A stretch of DNA of 63,660 bases, the filler included, from Myxococcota bacterium (GTDB lineage Bacteria > Myxococcota > Myxococcia > Myxococcales > Myxococcaceae): the NCBI GenBank assembly GCA_049322255.1. It is 3 parts of 3 records of this genome, joined end to end, with 100 filler letters (N's around TTAATTAATTAA, not from the genome) between each part and the next. Parts side by side here need not be neighbours in the genome. Positions count along the whole stretch, not along the records: positions 43,907 to 63,660 come from JBMORE010000078.1; 2 more parts are not named here. One strand, written 5' to 3'. This document shows, in pieces, positions 48,144 to 56,944 of this stretch. Within the stretch, counting starts at the first letter, position 1; every line of letters begins with the position of its first letter. A program made the position numbers and the translations under genes. The notes beneath the pieces are model-generated. The model saw nothing but the letters and a program-made list of their open reading frames with translations, did not search any database and was not told the DNA's origin.

Positions 48144-50183
48144 TTATCCGACGAGCTGAACGGGTTCACCCGCTTCCGGGCGGCGCAGCGCGGCGAGGAC
48201 CTCGGTGGAAAGCTTGGCGCGCAGCTTGGCGACCATCTCCGGGCTGCCCGCGTAGTGGTGGTGCTCATCGTCGAGCAACTGCTGAATGACATCGCGATCG
48301 ACGTTGGGAAGGTTGTAGCGCGCAAGGAAGGCAACCCACAGCTCGTCGTCGCGAAAGCCCTCGTCGATGTCCAGCGACTGGGCAAACCCGATGAGCCCGT
48401 TGAGCTTGGCGTCCACCGCTTCCATTTGCAGCTGCCAGCTGGAGATGAGGTAGCGGCCGAACTCGTAGACCACCGTGGCGCGCAGCGCCTCTTCGCTCAT
48501 GTGCGAATAGCGCGCGTTCACCTCCAGGCGGTACTCGGTCTTCCCGTCGGGGCCTGTGGCTTGGGTGAAGCGAACCAGCTCCTTCTCACCCAGCTTGGGC
48601 TCGAACCAGCCTCCTGCCACCACCTTCGAATCCTTGTTCACCAAGTCGAGAATCGAGCTGAATTCGGACACCGCGTTGAGAATCTGCGCCGCCACGTTCA
48701 CCTTGGTGCCGTCGAGAATGCTGGCGTGCCGCGCCTGCTTCACCGGCTTCATCTCGCGCTGGGTGTCCGTGGGCACGGAGAAGGTGCTGAAGTTGAAGTG
48801 CTTGTCCAGGTAGTCGGCCTGGCCGTCGCTGTCGCGATCGAGCACGCGCTCGCGCACCAGGGTGGAGATGGGGGTGAGGAAGTTGTTCCGGCCCGAATAT
48901 CCGTCGGTGTCGTTGAACATCCGGGTCAGCTTCTCCCAGTCGTCCCGCCGGGCAATTCCCGCGCAGAGCGAGTCAATCTCGGTGTCCCGGTAGGCCGACC
49001 CGAAGGTCGTCACCACCTGGAGGTTGGGGTACTTCTTCTTCAGCTGATCGAGCACTCCCTTGCCCACGCACAAGTCGTAGATGAAGAGCTGGCCGTCTCC
49101 GCCGCCGGAGGTGTCGGGCCCCCTCTCGATCGACGAGGTCATGTTCCGACCCCAGTTGGAGTGACCGTCGTAGCCCATGATGTGCACGCCCTTCTTCCCC
49201 GTGCCCGCGAGCAGGTCGCTTCCCCCTTCTTGGACGCTGATGCGAAAGACCGTCTCCCCTACTCCCGGCTCGTTGAACTTCTTTTCGAAGGTGGTGACGC
49301 CAGAGCGGCTCTCCGGCCCCACCGGCTGAAAGCCACCCATCTCCAGCCTCGCCATGAAGCGCTCGTGGAACTCGTCTCCCACCTTCCAGTGAAGGTTGAT
49401 GGTCTTGTTCCCGTCGGCGAACCACTTCTCGTAGGGCGGAGTCATCGGCGCCAGCTCGCGCATCCACGTCGAGGCGAGCTCCTTGGCCGGGCCCGCCTTG
49501 GCCACCTTCGAGTTGGCGAAGTGGAAGATGAGGTTCTCCCGCAGACGCACGTCGGTTTCCGCCAACACCAGGCTGCGGAAGGCGTCGAGCATCGGCGCGG
49601 AAAGCTCGGGCTCGGCAGTGGCCTCCATCAGATGTAGGAGCACCGTCGCCGACGACGCACGCAGCTGCAGCGCCTGGTTGGCATCCAGCCTCGCCGGGCG
49701 GGTGCCACCCGCGGGCACCTTGGCCAACGTTCCCTGAAGCGTTTGGAAAACCGCCGCCCGGGTGTCTTTGGACACGCCGACGTCGGCGAAGACATTGCCC
49801 GCAGAGTCGTCCACCAATTCGCCTGCGCGGAAGAGCGCCTCGCCCAGCTCGACGTCGTTCCTGGGCGGAGCACCCTCGGCGGAGAGCGAAAAGACACCCG
49901 TGCTGGAAAGAAAGACCGGGCGGTGCGCGTCGGAGGGATCGAGCGCAACGGTACCGCCAGGCGGGGACGCCGGAGCCGACCGCTCGATGATTGCCCGAAT
50001 GGTATCGAGCGCCGCAGGGTCGAACAGGTCGCGGTGTTGGGTGAGAATTCGCCGCAGCTGTGCCTTCTCGTACCCGCTCACCACCCCGTTCTTCTGGGCA
50101 TGGGCGACGAGGGCCTGAGCCTCCTCGCGGGTGATGCGGCCGTCAGCGGCTGCCTGGCTTCCCTTGCGTATGATTGAGGGCAT
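48144..50183 (-). CDS. Large hypothetical protein with putative clan-CD (caspase/CHAT-like) peptidase domain
   Basis: 679-aa ORF with good codon bias; IMGYDGHS and LFIYDLC motifs; DRDSDGQAD Ca-loop-like motif. Confidence 0.7.
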   Translation of the reverse strand: MPSIIRKGSQAAADGRITREEAQALVAHAQKNGVVSGYEKAQLRRILTQHRDLFDPAALDTIRAIIERSAPASPPGGTVALDPSDAHRPVFLSSTGVFSLSAEGAPPRNDVELGEALFRAGELVDDSAGNVFADVGVSKDTRAAVFQTLQGTLAKVPAGGTRPARLDANQALQLRASSATVLLHLMEATAEPELSAPMLDAFRSLVLAETDVRLRENLIFHFANSKVAKAGPAKELASTWMRELAPMTPPYEKWFADGNKTINLHWKVGDEFHERFMARLEMGGFQPVGPESRSGVTTFEKKFNEPGVGETVFRISVQEGGSDLLAGTGKKGVHIMGYDGHSNWGRNMTSSIERGPDTSGGGDGQLFIYDLCVGKGVLDQLKKKYPNLQVVTTFGSAYRDTEIDSLCAGIARRDDWEKLTRMFNDTDGYSGRNNFLTPISTLVRERVLDRDSDGQADYLDKHFNFSTFSVPTDTQREMKPVKQARHASILDGTKVNVAAQILNAVSEFSSILDLVNKDSKVVAGGWFEPKLGEKELVRFTQATGPDGKTEYRLEVNARYSHMSEEALRATVVYEFGRYLISSWQLQMEAVDAKLNGLIGFAQSLDIDEGFRDDELWVAFLARYNLPNVDRDVIQQLLDDEHHHYAGSPEMVAKLRAKLSTEVLAALRRPEAGEPVQLVG

Positions 50184-50313: not shown

Positions 50314-50742
50314 TCAGTGCACGACGATGACCGGACGATCGGCGTGATGCACCACCCGATCGCTCACCGAGCCCAACAGCCACCGTCCTCCCGGGCCGAG
50401 CCCGCGGGCGCCGACGACAATGGTGTCCGCCGCCAACTCCCGGGCCTGCTCGAGAAGCGTGGCCGCCGGAGCACCGACCACCACCCGCTTTTCCAACTGC
50501 GCGCGTGGCAAGTCCTTCGCCACCTCGTCGAGCAACTGCGTCACCCGCTGCATTTCTTCGGGCGGCGGCGGGTGGGCGGCGATCGCCACCGAGTCGAGCG
50601 GGCCGATGGGGAAGACACGCGGCGGATCGAGCACGAACAAGAGCGTGACCCGTGCACCGATCTGCTGCGCCAAGTCGTGCGCATACAGCGCCGCTTTCCG
50701 AGCGCTCTGCGAACCGTCGATACCCACGAGGAGATGACGCAC
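50314..50742 (-). CDS. Universal stress protein
   Basis: LLVGIDGS, IVVGARGLG, LLGSVSDRVVHHADRPVIVV. Confidence 0.93.
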   Translation of the reverse strand: MRHLLVGIDGSQSARKAALYAHDLAQQIGARVTLLFVLDPPRVFPIGPLDSVAIAAHPPPPEEMQRVTQLLDEVAKDLPRAQLEKRVVVGAPAATLLEQARELAADTIVVGARGLGPGGRWLLGSVSDRVVHHADRPVIVVH

Positions 50743-50794
50743 CACGAGCACAAGCTGGTCACGCCGGGAGAAGGTGGCAATGGCTGGCGCCGTG

Positions 50795-51202
50795 CTACCA
50801 GACGACTTCGACACCGCCCCAGTCGGAGATGGCGGAGTCAGCGGTCAGGAGCGGCAGGCCGAGCGCAAGAGCGGTCGCGACGATGAGCCGATCGTAGAGA
50901 TCGCGGTGGTGCCAACCGAGCGCCGAGGCCGCGAAGACGTCTTCCGCAGAGATGTCCTGAAAATGCAGGCGCGGGTTGCGGAGCCTCCGCCACCAGCGTT
51001 CGAGGGATGTTTCGACCCGGATGACTCCACCCTGCGCCAGAAGCCAGGTCTCGAGCACGACCGGCATGGGGACGTAGAGGTCCAACCGGCCAGACTCATA
51101 AGCCTCGAATGCTGCGCGTGCGCGTTTGCTCAGCTTGCGAAGTCGCGCGGCTGCAAACCACACCAACGGGTGCGTATCCGTCACCAGAGCGGGGGGAGTC
51201 AA
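50795..51202 (-). CDS. vapC: PIN-domain toxin (VapC)
   Basis: VTDTHPLVW, VVLE, HRDLYDRLIVATA, LLTAD. Confidence 0.92.
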   Translation of the reverse strand: MTPPALVTDTHPLVWFAAARLRKLSKRARAAFEAYESGRLDLYVPMPVVLETWLLAQGGVIRVETSLERWWRRLRNPRLHFQDISAEDVFAASALGWHHRDLYDRLIVATALALGLPLLTADSAISDWGGVEVVW

Positions 51203-51207
51203 TGGGC

Positions 51208-51531
51208 TTACCCAACCACATCCTCAAGAAGCGCTTTCTCTGCTTCTCGCTTGGCCCTCTGGAGGGCCTCGTCGATATCGCCCAACAACTTCAACGTGCC
51301 TCGGATGCGGGGAGGGCGAGCGCTCCGCCGAGAGGACGGTTCCTGGAGCTTGAGCTCGGCCAGATGCTCAGCGGAGAGGAGATAAGCCCGAACCTTTCCG
51401 TGGACGGAGATGGGAACCTCCACACGCGGGGCCCTGGCGAGCTGCTGTACCAGAGGCGAAAACCGTTGCCGCGCCGTACTCAGCGACAAAGGCTCCAGGC
51501 CCAGCATCGATCGTTTCTTTCTCGCGCCCAT
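51208..51531 (-). CDS. Phd/YefM-like antitoxin
   Basis: LSTARQRFSPLV...ISVHGKVRAYLLS; directly upstream of the PIN toxin. Confidence 0.8.
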   Translation of the reverse strand: MGARKKRSMLGLEPLSLSTARQRFSPLVQQLARAPRVEVPISVHGKVRAYLLSAEHLAELKLQEPSSRRSARPPRIRGTLKLLGDIDEALQRAKREAEKALLEDVVG

Positions 51532-51551
51532 ATGCACAGATTATGTGTACA
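51532..51551. promoter_or_regulatory. Putative TA autoregulatory operator
   Basis: TGCACAGATTATGTGTACA imperfect palindrome abutting the antitoxin start codon. Confidence 0.5.
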
Positions 51552-51587: not shown

Positions 51588-52547
51588 CTACTCGCTTTCG
51601 TACTCGTCGAGACCGGTTCGTGTGGTGTCAGCTCGCCAGAGCACCGGGGGCCCCATCGCCTTGTGCCGGGCAGCGTAGATGAGGTCGACCACCCGGAGGA
51701 ACGCGCGTTGCGGCACGTTTGCCCGCCTAAGCGCCGCGGCGAACTGGTCGATCTCGCGCGGTACCACTCCTCCTTCGAAGAGCGCGCAAGCTTCCAGAAC
51801 CACCTCCAGCGAGCGCTCGATGTCCTCGTAGGTCACTCCCAGCTCGACCTCGGCGGTGCGCCCGGGCAAAAGCCCCGCATCAGCGGGTTTTTTCGCCAGC
51901 CTGCGCCCCAGCTTCTCGTCCACCGGCCGCAACGCGAGCTCGAGCAGCCGGCGAACCTCGCTCTTGTGCAGGCTGGCCAGCGGGGCCAGGTCGCTGCTCG
52001 AGCCCTTGGTGTAGTAGCCGACGAAGCCCTCATCGAGATCGCCGGTGCCCACGAAGAGCGCGCGCTGCGCGGCCGCCTCGTGGAAAAGGGTCATCGTGCG
52101 CAGACGGGTCTTCAAGTTTCCCAGCGCCGTGGAGCCTGCCGGAGCCTTCGAGAGCAGCGGAGTCATCGCGGCAAGCGCGGGTTCCAAGTCGATGCGAACC
52201 GTTTTGATTCCCAGCACCGACAGAAGCGCGCGCGCGTCGGCCTCGTCGCGGGCGTTCGACTGACAGGGCAAAAGGTAGCCCGTCACCCCGCCGGGCACCG
52301 CGCGGGCCAGCACGCAGGCGGTCAGCGAGCTGTCCACCCCGCCACTCGCGCCGAAGACGACTCGCTTGACCCCGGCGAAGCGCACGCGCTCTTTGGTCCA
52401 CTCGACGAGCAGCTCGAGCGCCTCCGGGCAGTCGTAGCGGCGCAGCTCCCGAAAGGCAGACGCCAGCCCACGCACCCGCGCCAGGTTGCGCGAGCGCTGG
52501 CGTGCGAGTTTCTTGAGGCGAAGCCCGAGCCGGTGGGCTGGGTCCAA
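51588..52547 (-). CDS. Divergent NAD+ synthase (NadE)-like N-type ATP pyrophosphatase
   Basis: SGGVDSS PP-loop, GNLKTRLR, GTGD..E, GYYTK, ELGVTY, HK; TKYGD and TDE motifs altered; TTG start 3 nt after the peptide stop. Confidence 0.85.
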   Translation of the reverse strand: MDPAHRLGLRLKKLARQRSRNLARVRGLASAFRELRRYDCPEALELLVEWTKERVRFAGVKRVVFGASGGVDSSLTACVLARAVPGGVTGYLLPCQSNARDEADARALLSVLGIKTVRIDLEPALAAMTPLLSKAPAGSTALGNLKTRLRTMTLFHEAAAQRALFVGTGDLDEGFVGYYTKGSSSDLAPLASLHKSEVRRLLELALRPVDEKLGRRLAKKPADAGLLPGRTAEVELGVTYEDIERSLEVVLEACALFEGGVVPREIDQFAAALRRANVPQRAFLRVVDLIYAARHKAMGPPVLWRADTTRTGLDEYESE

Positions 52548-52550
52548 GCG

Positions 52551-52775
52551 CTACTTCTTGCCTCCACCCCTGCGCAGGACCGAGGCCGGGTAGAAGGGGC
52601 TGCCGACGGGAGAGCGACCACCGCTCTTGCCTCCACCGACGCTCAAGGACGAACCGCTCTTTCCGCCTCCACGGCGCGCCGTCTTGGAGCGCGGCTTGGC
52701 GGCCCGGCCGCTGCTCTTGCCGCCGCCGGTGCGAAGGGTGGTGCGCGGTGAAGACCTTCTGGTGATTTTGGACAT
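52551..52775 (-). CDS. 74-aa basic peptide with four GGGK repeats (candidate precursor/substrate)
   Basis: AGGAGGGG RBS; GGGK at aa 17-20, 36-39, 47-50, 70-73 with synonymous codon variation; no Asp/Glu. Confidence 0.8.
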   Translation of the reverse strand: MSKITRRSSPRTTLRTGGGKSSGRAAKPRSKTARRGGGKSGSSLSVGGGKSGGRSPVGSPFYPASVLRRGGGKK

Positions 52776-52825
52776 GACCCCTCCTGAGGAATCGACAACG
52801 AGGTCGCGCAGTACCCTAGCAGACT

Positions 52826-54241
52826 TCAGAACTGGAAGTAGATGTAGGGCTGCACCTCGAAGGAAGCGACCTGGCGGATGAGCAGCCCCAGCGCCACCAG
52901 GGCGGCGGCGCGGATGGGCACCGGCATACGCACGAACAGCTCGGCCACGCGCAAGAAACCCTTCTTAGGAACGGCATGCGCCACCGCCGCCAGCGCCAGC
53001 ATCACCCACACCAGCAAGGAGACGTTGGCGAGGCCGCCGCTGAAGACCAACAGCTGCCGGAACATCGCCAGCGCGTGGTCGAGGTCTGGCGCGCGGAAGA
53101 AAATTCGAGTGAGCACGACCAGGACGAACGTCGAGCCGACGCCCCACGCCGCGCCGAGCGCCGAGTACGCCTTGGGCTTGCCGCGCCACCACCACCAGCA
53201 GCGAAGGGCGACCAGGAAAACTCCGTGAATGCCGCCCCACAGGGCGAACCGCCAGTCGGCTCCGTGCCACAGCCCGCCCAGCACCATCACCACCATCAGG
53301 TTGCGCAAGATCTTCGGACGCGAGACCCGGTTGCCGCCCAACGGAATGTAGAGGTAGTCGCGCAGCCAGGTGGAGAGGCTGATGTGCCAGCGGTTCCAAA
53401 ACTCGAAGAGGTTTTTGGCGTGGTAGGGCTTGTCGAAGTTCTCGGGGAGGTGAAAACCGAAGAGGGCCGCCGCGCCGATGGCGATGTCGGAGTACGCCGA
53501 GAAGTCGAAGTAGATCTGCAGCGTGTACGCCACGGTGGCCACCGCGCACTCCGCCGAGCTGTACAGCCCAGGGTCGCGAAACACCGGGTCCACCAGACCG
53601 ACCGCCAGCACGTCGGCCAAGAGGAGCTTTTTCACCAGACCGGTCGCGATGCGAAACAAGCCCTGGGCGCCCTCGTCGGCAGACAAGGCAGGGGTTTTAT
53701 CGAACCGCTCGAGCAGGTCGGAGGCGCGCACGATGGGCCCCGCGACGACCTGAGGAAAAAAGAGCAGGAAAACGATTTGCTCGAGCAGCCCGTGCCGCCC
53801 CGACAACTCACGGCGGTACACGTCGACGATGTAGCTGATCGCCTGGAAGGCCACGAACGACAGGCCCACGGGAAGAATGAGCCCCACCCGATCGGCCCGG
53901 GCGGAGAAGCCGAAGGCTTGCGAGAACCAGCCGAAGGTGGAGAGGAAGAGGTCTAAGTACTTGAAGGTGAACAGCACCATCAGGTGGTTGGTGATCACCA
54001 CCACCAAGATCGCCGAGCGTTCGGTGCGGCCCTCCACCCTCTCGAGCAGCCGCGCGCCCGCCCAGTTCACCACCGCGTACCAGAAGAAAATGACCAGCGG
54101 CATCGGGTCCCACGCCGCGTAGAAGAGCAAGCTGGTGAGCAGCAAGACGAGCATCCGCGCCCACCGGTGGCGGTGCACCGCCCAGTAGAGAGCGAAGGAC
54201 GCCGCGAAAAACCCCAGGAACTGGACGCTGTGGAAGAGCAC
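52826..54241 (-). CDS. MBOAT O-acyltransferase (AlgI/PatA-like)
   Basis: LPVGLSF, FFPQVVAGPIVR, QIYFDFSAYSDIAIG, FWNRWHISLS, GLWHGA. Confidence 0.95.
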   Translation of the reverse strand: MLFHSVQFLGFFAASFALYWAVHRHRWARMLVLLLTSLLFYAAWDPMPLVIFFWYAVVNWAGARLLERVEGRTERSAILVVVITNHLMVLFTFKYLDLFLSTFGWFSQAFGFSARADRVGLILPVGLSFVAFQAISYIVDVYRRELSGRHGLLEQIVFLLFFPQVVAGPIVRASDLLERFDKTPALSADEGAQGLFRIATGLVKKLLLADVLAVGLVDPVFRDPGLYSSAECAVATVAYTLQIYFDFSAYSDIAIGAAALFGFHLPENFDKPYHAKNLFEFWNRWHISLSTWLRDYLYIPLGGNRVSRPKILRNLMVVMVLGGLWHGADWRFALWGGIHGVFLVALRCWWWWRGKPKAYSALGAAWGVGSTFVLVVLTRIFFRAPDLDHALAMFRQLLVFSGGLANVSLLVWVMLALAAVAHAVPKKGFLRVAELFVRMPVPIRAAALVALGLLIRQVASFEVQPYIYFQF

Positions 54242-56944
54242 CTAGGGTGCCTCCGCCGAGGCCGAGGCGCGCTCGTACGCCGCGAGGAAATCGTCGAGGA
54301 AGGCGTTGGCCAGCACCTGATAGCCGCGGGCGGTGAGGTGCACACGGTCGGGGTGCGCCAGCGGCGGTTTCTGCTCCACCCAGCGGGAGATCGCCCCGGG
54401 CCCGCCCATCGCCGCCCGAGTGGACCAGAAGGCGCAACCGTGTGAGCGCGCCACGTCGCGCAGCGCGGGAATCACCACGGCCTGCGAGGGCGCTTGCACC
54501 CAGCGATCGGCGCGTTGCTCCATGCGGTCGGTCGGTCCCAAAAGCAGACACTCGGCTTGTGGCGCCGCCGCCTTCAAGGTGCGGAACAGATCGTCGTAGC
54601 GCCGCCTCATCGCCGCCACGTCCACCCGGGGCAGCGCGCTCTCGTTGGTACCGAAGAAGAGCACGTAGAGATCCGGCCTGCGGGCCACCAGCTGCACCTG
54701 TAGCGCGCTCTGCTCGTAGGTGGCGAGGGTGAACACCGTCGCTCCCGGCAGGCCCAAGGCGTCGTACGCGATGCCCGGGCGGTCGAGCTCCACCGAAGCC
54801 CCGAAGACCTTCACCGTGCCTCCCCCCGCGTTCCTCATCCGCACCACGTGCGATGGCCCTTGGGCCTCGAAGCTCAACACCCGCGCGGCCCGCTCCGTAG
54901 GGGGCTTGCTTTTCGACGGCACCCGCACCGCGCGCCAGTCGTCGATGAACACCTCGAGCTGACCCATGGCCGGCTCCTCCAACAGGTGCACGTCCACTCG
55001 GGCGCGCACGTCGCTTCGCGGGCAGCCCTCGCAAAAAGCGATTTCCAGCCAGGCACCGGCCTCACCCTCGGCGCGAATGCCGGTGAGCCCCCAGATCTGC
55101 CCCGGCAGCCCAGACACCGCGTCGGGGACGTTCCAGTTGCCCTGCAGCTCCCGCCGCACCGAAGGCAACAGCCGCTTCGAGGGTCTGCCGGCGGCGACGT
55201 AGCCTCGGCCGCGATCTCCGAACCGATCGGCCAGACGTTTGCGCACCACGTCGGTGAACAGGTGCGAGGCGGTGTGAGAGGCTCCGAGCTGAAGAATCGA
55301 CAGCCTCCCCTCTTTCTCCGTCTCGAGGCGACGCAAGACCGAGAAGACTCGCGTCAGCGATGCAGAAGCCAGCTCCAGCCCCGTTCCGTCGGCAGGCCCG
55401 GTGCCCGCCGAAGCCAGCCGTGTGCGCTCCAGCGCCAGATCGAACAGGTGGCCGAGGAGATCACCGCCGCGGCCCAGCGGGTGCACCAGGTCGGCGTTCA
55501 TCAACCCGGCGGCCAGCCAGCGCGAGACCGCCCCCGGCCCGCCCATCGCTTCGAAGGCGTTCCAGAAGGCGCACCCCTTGTCGAGCGCCACTTGGCGCAG
55601 CACGCGCAACACCTCCTCGGTGCCGCCACGCGAGGACACCTGGCCACCCATGGTGCGCACGCCCGCATCCAGGGGGCTGATGAGCAGGCACGATGCCTTG
55701 GGGGCCGCACCGTGCACTCGCGCCAGAAGCTCCTCGAAGCTCGCGCGCACCTCCTCGAGAGTGATGTGACCCTTGGACAACGCCAAGGCCTCGTTGCCGC
55801 CCAACTGAAGCACCACCAGAGAAGGCTCGCGCCTGGCGAGCTGTGCTTGGAAGACCTCGGGGGTGGCGCGCAAGAGCACCTGCGCGGTCGCTCCCGGCAA
55901 GCCGATCGAGTCGTAAGTCACCCCGCGCTCGGCGCGCTCGAGAGCCACCCCGTACAGCCGCACCGAGCTTCCCCGCGCGGTGATCGACAGCTTCCGCGCT
56001 CCCTCGGGCAAGCTGACGCGCTGAAAGCCGGCCGTCTCCATTCCCAGGTCGGTGGGGAGGGTGGCGAGCATCGTCCCGTCGACCACAAGCTCGACGTCGC
56101 CCCCTTTGGGCTGGCCGCCGAAGAAGACGTCGGCGGCGGCGGCGCGCCCCACATCGAACTGGGCGGACTCGGGCTTGTCCTGGGCGGTGAAGGCAACGCC
56201 CGAAAAGCCCAACGGCTTGGCAGGCGCTTCGCTGTCGGTGAGCTTGTCGATGACCCACCCCGGGGTGGCTTGGCCGGTGCGCACCGCACGCCCCGAGAAC
56301 CGCGTCGGCCGATCGACGAACAAAAAACCCGCACCGCCCGCGCCGTGCCTGGCTTGCAACCGCTGGCGAATGACGTCGGTGATGTGGTCGGAGGCGATGA
56401 GCGAATCGCCCAGGTGCACGATGCGTAAGGGAGGACCCTCGCCACCGGCGCGGGCGGTCTTGAGCGCGGCGAAGAAGGCGTCGAGAGCCCTTCCTGCGCA
56501 GAGCCCTTCGGCGGTGACGGAGCGACACCCTTCTTCGATCTCCACATGGCGAGCGCCAAGTCTGCGGGCCAAGCCCTCCAGCTCCCAGGCAGTCCTCGCA
56601 GCGGCCGGCTGGAGCGTGGCCAACGTCTCGGCGGGTTCCATCATCTGTGCGGGCGGGCGCACCAACCCCTTCTCGAGCAGCACCGACGTCAGCACCGGGG
56701 AAGGTTCCGTCGTGGAGGCCGTCGCCAGCTCGACCGGTGCAGGCAGCACCGGCCCTTTCGATGCCAGCGCTGGCAAGGGCGCGCCGCGCGGCCACAGAAT
56801 GGCTCGCAACGTCCCCAGGGGATCGGCGCGGGCCGATTCGAAGGGGCGCAACCATGCGGGCAGCGGGAGCCCCGACAGCCCGAGCGACAGCCCTACCACC
56901 ATGGCAATCGTCAGGCCGGTCGAATGTCGATGGAGCGGCGACAC
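54242..56944 (-). CDS. Tandem SGNH/GDSL acetyltransferase/esterase (PatB-like, two domains)
   Basis: Domain 1 GDSL, GGNE, DLVH; domain 2 GASH, GTNE, DRVH; N-terminal TM anchor. Confidence 0.88.
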   Translation of the reverse strand: MSPLHRHSTGLTIAMVVGLSLGLSGLPLPAWLRPFESARADPLGTLRAILWPRGAPLPALASKGPVLPAPVELATASTTEPSPVLTSVLLEKGLVRPPAQMMEPAETLATLQPAAARTAWELEGLARRLGARHVEIEEGCRSVTAEGLCAGRALDAFFAALKTARAGGEGPPLRIVHLGDSLIASDHITDVIRQRLQARHGAGGAGFLFVDRPTRFSGRAVRTGQATPGWVIDKLTDSEAPAKPLGFSGVAFTAQDKPESAQFDVGRAAAADVFFGGQPKGGDVELVVDGTMLATLPTDLGMETAGFQRVSLPEGARKLSITARGSSVRLYGVALERAERGVTYDSIGLPGATAQVLLRATPEVFQAQLARREPSLVVLQLGGNEALALSKGHITLEEVRASFEELLARVHGAAPKASCLLISPLDAGVRTMGGQVSSRGGTEEVLRVLRQVALDKGCAFWNAFEAMGGPGAVSRWLAAGLMNADLVHPLGRGGDLLGHLFDLALERTRLASAGTGPADGTGLELASASLTRVFSVLRRLETEKEGRLSILQLGASHTASHLFTDVVRKRLADRFGDRGRGYVAAGRPSKRLLPSVRRELQGNWNVPDAVSGLPGQIWGLTGIRAEGEAGAWLEIAFCEGCPRSDVRARVDVHLLEEPAMGQLEVFIDDWRAVRVPSKSKPPTERAARVLSFEAQGPSHVVRMRNAGGGTVKVFGASVELDRPGIAYDALGLPGATVFTLATYEQSALQVQLVARRPDLYVLFFGTNESALPRVDVAAMRRRYDDLFRTLKAAAPQAECLLLGPTDRMEQRADRWVQAPSQAVVIPALRDVARSHGCAFWSTRAAMGGPGAISRWVEQKPPLAHPDRVHLTARGYQVLANAFLDDFLAAYERASASAEAP

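Follow-up and report, generated by a model that had tools for sequence, protein, structure and literature searches.

The stretch of Myxococcota DNA analysed in this study (63,660 nucleotides (nt), referred to as the window) carries on its minus strand, between positions 51588 and 52775, a small gene for a Gly/Lys-repeat protein that is followed directly by a gene for a divergent enzyme of the NadE family of nicotinamide adenine dinucleotide (NAD) synthetases. This cassette lies on contig C78 of an assembly of 196 contigs, and contig C71 accounts for window positions 1-21880 only. We read it as a probable adenylating enzyme of the NadE family to which a repeat protein is dedicated as partner; the chemistry proposed for the pair is a hypothesis. 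The features of the locus, including the open reading frame (ORF) of the small gene and the lengths of both products in amino acids (aa), are as follows:

52780..52785, minus strand: AGGAGG Shine-Dalgarno-like site, 4 nt 5' of the ATG of the small ORF (sequence inspection)
52551..52775 including the stop, minus strand: GGGK-repeat protein gene, 74 aa, basic, predicted disordered, four R-x-G-G-G-K units (orthologues; profile E 3.9e-12 at the window locus)
52557..52568, minus strand: last GGGK unit, residues 70-73, whose Gly codons contain GGAGG ahead of the enzyme TTG (sequence)
51588..52547, minus strand: divergent single-domain PP-loop ATP pyrophosphatase of the NadE family, 319 aa, TTG start (PF02540, TIGR00552, AlphaFold2 model, Foldseek)
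52329..52346, minus strand: PP-loop S68-G-G-V-D-S73, the ATP pyrophosphatase signature (alignment of 12 clade and 12 canonical rows)
51990..52010, minus strand: loop T180-K-G-S-S-S-D186, shorter than that of NadE and without the Asp of the ammonia-site 'GD' (alignment)

The small ORF opens with ATG and carries GGGK at residues 17-20, 36-39, 47-50 and 70-73. These motifs are encoded in three spellings, namely GGC GGC GGC AAG, GGA GGC GGA AAG and, twice, GGT GGA GGC AAG. The 74-aa peptide comprises 17 Gly, 14 Ser, 11 Arg and 8 Lys and lacks Asp and Glu, and none of 100000 shuffles of its sequence contained four or more GGGK motifs. On the minus strand, CGC separates its TAG stop (52551-52553) from the TTG (52545-52547) that opens the enzyme ORF, and the GGAGG at 52561-52565 sits within the last repeat. 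The initial annotation had described the ORF with its ribosome-binding site, the four GGGK motifs in varied codons, the 8 Lys, 11 Arg and absent acidic residues, as well as a peptide stop 3 nt ahead of the TTG and an enzyme GGAGG inside the last repeat, and all of this was reproduced from the sequence. Absent from that annotation was that both ORFs of the window share one reading frame, with the TAG alone between them.

Gene callers mostly miss this family of Gly/Lys-repeat proteins. No Pfam, NCBIfam or PADLOC model matched the peptides, a protein homologue search queried with the peptide returned the query itself only, and a peptide profile found 3 matches among 1.84 billion representative proteins. 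The ESM Atlas model of the peptide had a predicted local distance difference test (pLDDT) value of 0.25, and the GC content at third codon positions (GC3) was 0.79, compared with 0.84-0.90 in neighbouring genes. The profile built from seven orthologous peptides, however, matched in eight genomes at E values of 4e-12 to 4e-27, which argues that the 74-aa ORF is a real gene. A scan for promoters and terminators gave no informative signal.

The enzyme of the window and its closest homologues form two clades, described below, and at 12 of 15 evaluable loci a Gly/Lys-repeat gene was located directly upstream of the clade enzyme on the same strand (7/9 in clade 1, 5/6 in clade 2); L102 and L120 were excluded from the evaluable loci as contig ends cut them. 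In clade 1 these loci are the window, L016 (=L021), L018 (=L024), L020 (=L100, L114), L022 (=L115), L101 and L103, whereas L017 (=L023) and L116, which belong to one genus, carry a PilZ-like gene in place of the peptide. The upstream ORFs of clade 1 encode 74-152 aa, start with M-[TSP]-[KR]-[VI] and contain 3-7 R-x-G-G-[G/S]-K units. Among 47 such units, Arg occupied position -5 in 39, Gly position -3 in 45, Gly position -2 in 47 and Gly or Ser position -1 in 43, the Lys being invariant by the definition of the unit. Six of nine clade-1 peptides lack Asp and Glu, and the net charge ranges from +18 to +31. Shine-Dalgarno-like sites precede the peptide ORFs, and both the N-terminus and the repeat unit are kept across six genera in which the enzymes are 59-73% identical.

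In clade 2, the upstream gene encodes a protein of 145-191 aa (L025 (=L117), L026 (=L118), L104, L105 and L119) in which a helical region at the N-terminus, about 95 residues long, precedes R-P-S-T-G-[G/S]-G-K-G units. Directly downstream of the NadE-like gene, all five of these loci carry a third gene of about 140 aa (L025:3777-4208, L104:3454-3870, L026:3960-4394, L105:2041-2457 and L119:2373-2807). Its product was modelled with a pLDDT of 72.7 as a small helical domain with a disordered tail, shows a conserved VTG...RP..AG and matched no Pfam, NCBIfam or PADLOC family and no known fold. The third gene is absent from the clade-1 loci including the window, so that clade 1 has two genes.

The distribution of both genes was further investigated in 401 Myxococcota genomes. 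At E <= 1e-40 the enzyme was present in 11 of them, eight with clade 1 (one as a contig-end fragment) and three with clade 2, and all carriers are metagenome-assembled genomes. The seven-peptide profile of clade 1 (E <= 1e-4) matched in eight genomes, which are exactly the carriers of the clade-1 enzyme, and in 0 of the 393 others. Two of these carriers, G035 and G263 of one genus, harbour the peptide gene on another contig than the enzyme gene (E 2e-12 and 8e-17). Peptide and enzyme thus constitute a conserved, co-inherited functional pair, and it is well supported that their pairing goes beyond chance. The coupling of peptide and enzyme proposed in the initial annotation is corroborated by the upstream repeat gene at most loci and by the identical phyletic pattern, and the repeat ORFs that it suggested looking for next to homologues were indeed found there. 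In the genus with the unlinked peptide, L122:177-1331 (minus strand) and L121:3024-3281 (plus strand) were recorded. A 384-aa protein encoded near the unlinked peptide belongs to no Pfam family and has a peptide-like N-terminus (MTRVRS..., GWKA..GGGRK), so that the peptide's head may be a module that is used more than once.

The start of the window enzyme was assessed by comparison of the 12 loci with an adjacent pair. In 10 of them the first canonical start in the enzyme frame lies 0-20 nt past the peptide stop, and likewise in 10 of 12 the distance from the first start codon (ATG in four) to SGGVDS is 62-69 residues, with 67 in the window. Exceptions were L018, which starts 60 nt downstream and has a distance of 43 residues, and L026 with 85 residues. 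As the starts of the homologues sit at matching positions, the TTG start of the window enzyme is supported, and so is translational coupling of both genes. The public gene call P0003 (295 aa) begins later at a GTG, a start which would remove a conserved and confidently modelled helix.

Peptide and enzyme are in the same frame at 8 of 12 loci (the window, L016, L018, L020, L101, L026, L104 and L119), compared with about 4 expected if one third were in frame. Stop-codon readthrough or recoding as a requirement was ruled out by the mixed peptide stops (TAG 6, TAA 3, TGA 3), the four out-of-frame loci and the ordinary starts after the stop. Low-level readthrough may give rise to a peptide-enzyme fusion. 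No fused protein was found among 72 homologues, which are of near equal length, and none exceeded 560 aa at E <= 1e-30.

The enzyme matched the Pfam family NAD_synthase (PF02540) with E 9.7e-38 and 130.1 bits (cut-off 21) and the NCBIfam model TIGR00552 with 120.9 bits (cut-off 63.65). It failed all equivalog cut-offs, with 140.7 vs 255 for PRK13980, 70.6 vs 250 for PRK00768 and 56.2 vs 479 for PRK13981. Against PF00733 it scored 18.7 bits, which is under the cut-off of 21; models of LarE and TilS gave no match at E <= 0.01, and those of MnmA, GuaA and AsnB gave weak matches far under their cut-offs. The AlphaFold2 model, computed with 25 homologues, had a mean pLDDT of 86.3. Its best Foldseek matches were the structures of NH3-dependent NadE 2e18, 1xng, 3fiu and 1nsy (E 1e-15; template modelling score by target 0.80-0.86), and a profile search against PDB sequences ranked 3p52 and 3fiu on top. 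Compared with canonical NadE, the enzyme is extended at the N-terminus by about 40 residues, which form two helices, and contains an insert of 6 residues as well as a beta-hairpin insert of about 20 residues.

A large protein database contained 72 homologues at E <= 1e-10, which, where named in the data sources, are called 'NAD(+) synthase'. Most of them (P0003-P0059) belong to clade 1, where identity with the window enzyme is 52-73%; it is 39-46% for six clade-2 sequences and 31-37% for ordinary NadE proteins. A tree was calculated by maximum likelihood from 45 selected rows, the remaining homologues and loci being left out; these rows are 12 of clade 1, 11 of clade 2 including a paralogue of the window genome on contig C69, 15 canonical NadE, E. 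coli NadE, the synthetase domain of the glutamine-type NadE of the window genome and 5 distant matches. In this tree both clades together were monophyletic (100/100) with a stem of 1.62 changes per site and nested in single-domain NadE, and the support was 99/97 for clade 1 and 97/95 for clade 2. In most clade-1 enzymes the C-terminus forms an acidic tail with the sequence [DE]-[FY]-E-[SN]-E (window 51588-51620, minus strand), which was modelled with a pLDDT below 50. This tail may contact the cationic peptide. A co-fold of the enzyme dimer with two ATP and the peptide scored 0.01, below the mark, and was given no weight for or against any reading.

For the active site, 12 clade rows were aligned with 12 canonical NadE rows. 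The PP-loop is conserved in all 24, save for one canonical Gln at the Val position, and N144, R148, R150, G167-T168, E173, G177, K195, E233, G237, Y240 and K296 are likewise kept in every row. In contrast, the Asp of '[YWF]-G-D' is present in 12/12 canonical rows and in 0/12 clade rows, which read T-K-G followed by Ser/Thr (11/12) or Ala (1/12) in a shortened loop. The Asp ahead of E233 (10/12 canonical rows) is replaced by Ala in 12/12 clade rows. Further changes in the clade concern a canonical Pro, which is A222 here, and the Arg following H-K (10/12 canonical rows), which is lost.

By means of the glutamine-type NadE of the same genome, aligned to M. tuberculosis NadE (tbNadE; 3dla), the lost Asp was mapped to the Asp of 'GWSTYGVGD'. 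It lies seven residues past the Trp numbered 490 and thus corresponds to Asp497 in the numbering used in the quoted part of PMC6946656. There, tbNadE Asp497 is described as the final site in the transfer of ammonia, and its human match Asp530 as 'strictly conserved'. Hence the altered NadE motifs that had been noticed initially could be traced to the ammonia site. Besides, C95 (in 'LPC') and C254 (ahead of the hairpin insert) are invariant in 12/12 clade rows; C254 has no canonical counterpart, and the position of C95 is Cys in 2/12 canonical rows. These cysteines may serve a thioester or sulfur-transfer step.

Strong matches to PF02540 in the window genome numbered three, namely the window gene, the C69 paralogue (39% identical) and a protein on contig C170, and three weak PP-loop matches were found in addition. 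The C170 protein is a long glutamine-type NadE of 631 aa that combines CN_hydrolase and NAD_synthase domains. Similar results were obtained in all five other carrier genomes checked, where a second NAD_synthase match lies in an open frame of 622-677 aa. The separate canonical nadE, the presence of which had been named as a check on the initial annotation, hence exists as a long copy in 6/6 genomes, and the window enzyme is not the housekeeping NAD synthetase. Of the outcomes named as speaking against the initial annotation, homologues lacking repeat peptides and a sole nadE, neither applies. The C69 paralogue belongs to clade 2 and lies at L002:1327-2511 (minus strand), where MPEPDLF is its likely start.

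In our proposal, the product of the small gene would be an intrinsically disordered protein of strong positive charge, composed of R-x-G-G-[G/S]-K units and acting as carrier or substrate, and the second, translationally coupled gene would encode an adenylating enzyme derived from NadE. Its PP-loop would use ATP to activate a carboxylate by adenylation, in the way that NadE acts on deamido-NAD, and the acyl-adenylate would then be attacked by the epsilon-amine of the Gly-flanked unit lysine, which would replace ammonia. The outcome would be one amide-linked group per repeat. We assign a probability of roughly 40% to such a ligase, with the peptide as substrate and the repeat lysines as nucleophiles. 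A multi-site substrate fits since the lysine is fixed between glycines and repeated 3-7 times. The acyl donor would be external: six of nine clade-1 peptides have no Asp or Glu, so that within the peptide the C-terminus alone could serve as donor. A nicotinate nucleotide would be the leading candidate, since the enzyme retains the canonical positions H-K, N..R.R and E/K/T of NadE. It is a long shot that the ligase joins the nicotinate carboxylate of deamido-NAD, or of nicotinic acid mononucleotide, to the lysines of R-x-G-G-G-K, which would yield a protein with several tethered NAD-type pyridine nucleotides.

Several observations weigh against a lysine-acylating ligase. For the C69 paralogue, neither a repeat protein nor a third gene is encoded in its neighbourhood or at any other place in the window genome, and the NadE-like family can therefore exist without a partner. 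The counts of co-occurrence overstate independence because the carriers are kin, with six genera for clade 1; in addition, the 401 genomes represent a sample of the phylum, and 12 candidates per genome were scored in the census with the peptide profile. A Pfam scan of 30 flanking ORFs at 8 loci revealed no shared family, protease, exporter or recognition domain. With respect to the active site, the catalytic role of the lost Asp is drawn from a paper on two-domain enzymes (PMC6946656, as quoted). The GTGDLxE variant is present in M. tuberculosis NadE as well and is therefore not diagnostic. Moreover, most canonical residues including H295-K296 are kept, and the enzyme could thus still be a NAD synthetase or a nicotinamide mononucleotide (NMN) synthetase.

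This last point leads to an alternative in which the enzyme is a working paralogue of NAD/NMN synthetase and the repeat protein its activator, scaffold, localisation factor or nucleic-acid-binding partner. It would explain why the enzyme passes TIGR00552, retains the fold and most invariant NadE residues, has homologues named as NAD(+) synthase in all data sources and counts the Francisella NMN synthetase 3fiu among its closest solved relatives. The extended C-terminal tail also recalls the partner-subunit-binding element of two-component NAD synthetases, as far as this is described in the quoted part of PMC3376133. However, a synthetase would be expected neither to miss every equivalog cut-off (best 140.7 vs 255) nor to lose the ammonia-site Asp in 12/12 rows on a long clade stem, and the genome already has a complete glutamine-type NadE, while the clade is rare (11/401 genomes). 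We consider this alternative unlikely, although it keeps some weight. Somewhat less credit is due to a role of the peptide's own C-terminus, the carboxylate of which the enzyme would adenylate for amidation by ammonia or for attack by a repeat lysine, either from its own chain or from a different one, with a macrolactam or a branched polymer as the product. The window peptide has no other carboxylate, and all seven adjacent clade-1 peptides end in Lys past a Gly-rich stub (GGGKK, GGNKGGK, VGGGK, NGGSK, VGGRK, GGNRK and RGGGK), as three of five clade-2 proteins end in GK. Asn-synthetase-type PP-loop enzymes such as the lasso cyclases adenylate peptide carboxylates. By contrast, GGM is the C-terminus of both unlinked peptides, two clade-2 proteins terminate in GIR and TPR, and a single C-terminus per chain leaves the 3-7 conserved units unaccounted for. 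The terminal Lys may merely mark a stop within the last repeat, whose Gly codons hold the downstream ribosome-binding site.

The repeats could also provide several product copies per chain in a peptide-templated biosynthesis, in which the lysines of the protein would be the scaffold for assembling a small molecule or cofactor that is set free afterwards, and genes at other sites would encode the further enzymes. A third conserved gene in 5/5 clade-2 cassettes would agree with this scheme, but no protease or tailoring genes are conserved among the same 30 flanking ORFs, and clade 1, the window included, has two genes only, so that we regard it as quite improbable. It is barely credible that no functional link exists and that the small ORF is spurious or a mere translational leader for the enzyme gene. 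Although it is rarely called (3 matches among 1.84 billion representatives) and its GC3 is below that of its neighbours, the N-terminus and repeat unit are conserved across six genera, and the peptide is retained where it is unlinked from the enzyme. The co-occurrence in eight genomes contradicts this explanation as well, as do the Shine-Dalgarno-like sites and the failure of any shuffle to produce four GGGK motifs.

Among known systems, the enzyme resembles NadE (PF02540/TIGR00552; 2e18, 1xng, 3fiu, 3p52) most, with which it shares the fold, SGGxDS, the Glu of GTxxxxE, T-K, N..R.R and H-K, and like which it presumably adenylates a carboxylate with ATP. It differs from NadE in the separate clade with its stem of 1.62, the extra N-terminus and inserts and the loss of the ammonia-site Asp; moreover, members of this clade were never the sole NadE in the genomes checked and are tied to a repeat-protein gene. 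Lasso cyclases and other Asn-synthetase-type PP-loop enzymes offer a parallel in PP-loop adenylation, attack by a peptide amine and a short adjoining precursor gene, whereas the window protein is below the cut-off of PF00733, its peptide has no Asp/Glu acceptor and no gene for a leader peptidase or a recognition element (RRE) lies nearby.

TilS is a PP-loop ATP pyrophosphatase that forms an adenylated intermediate, with the epsilon-amine of lysine as the attacking nucleophile. By analogy, it would be a precedent for Lys replacing ammonia, but the window protein matches neither TilS nor ATP_bind_3, and the substrates of TilS are tRNA and free lysine. Carboxylate adenylation, followed by amide linkage to one particular lysine in a carrier protein, is also the reaction of biotin protein ligase and lipoate-protein ligase. 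This similarity would be a functional analogy only, as the folds are unrelated and the acceptor lysine lies in a folded domain there, compared with a putatively disordered Gly-rich repeat here.

With regard to peptides that are made by the ribosome and modified after translation (RiPPs), a short ribosomal precursor gene is conserved beside a modifying enzyme at 12/15 loci, while a conserved leader-recognition domain, protease or exporter was not found among the 30 flanking ORFs. The partner proteins have 74-191 aa and are predicted to be disordered, and the cassette may be labelled a RiPP candidate. NadE is regarded as a one-function housekeeping enzyme. A literature search retrieved no account of a peptide partner for an enzyme of the NadE type, and in line with the initial annotation, which knew of no described system of this kind, neither a family model nor a paper was found for such a pair. 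An exhaustive analysis of nadE contexts, in the part that is quoted (PMC3376133), found no new partner subunit.

We suggest that the annotation 'NAD synthase' hides a different function in these Myxococcota, and that synteny together with phyletic pattern is a means of detecting genes for small disordered partners. If lysine acylation applies, the enzyme would be the first protein or peptide ligase of the NadE family and would stand for a new post-translational modification or RiPP-like class, possibly with a route to protein-bound pyridine nucleotides. If nucleotides are tethered, the protein would be a 'swinging-arm' nicotinamide carrier analogous to biotinyl- or lipoyl-lysine and hence a new kind of protein prosthetic group.

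The genes flanking the pair are otherwise not conserved among the loci. Directly upstream in the window (52826-56944, minus strand) are genes for a 471-aa O-acyltransferase of the DltB/MBOAT type and, overlapping with it, for a protein of 900 aa that has two GDSL/SGNH regions; the two look like an acylation pair for a polysaccharide or surface polymer. A functional link of the cassette to these genes was ruled out, as the flanks differ in every other locus. Farther downstream on the minus strand lies a 679-aa ORF without Pfam match (48144-50183), and a universal stress protein is encoded at 50314-50814. Directly downstream of the enzyme gene (50795-51537, minus strand), a PIN-domain protein of 135 aa is preceded by a weak Phd/YefM-like ORF of 109 aa, and both are likely a toxin-antitoxin pair of the VapBC type.

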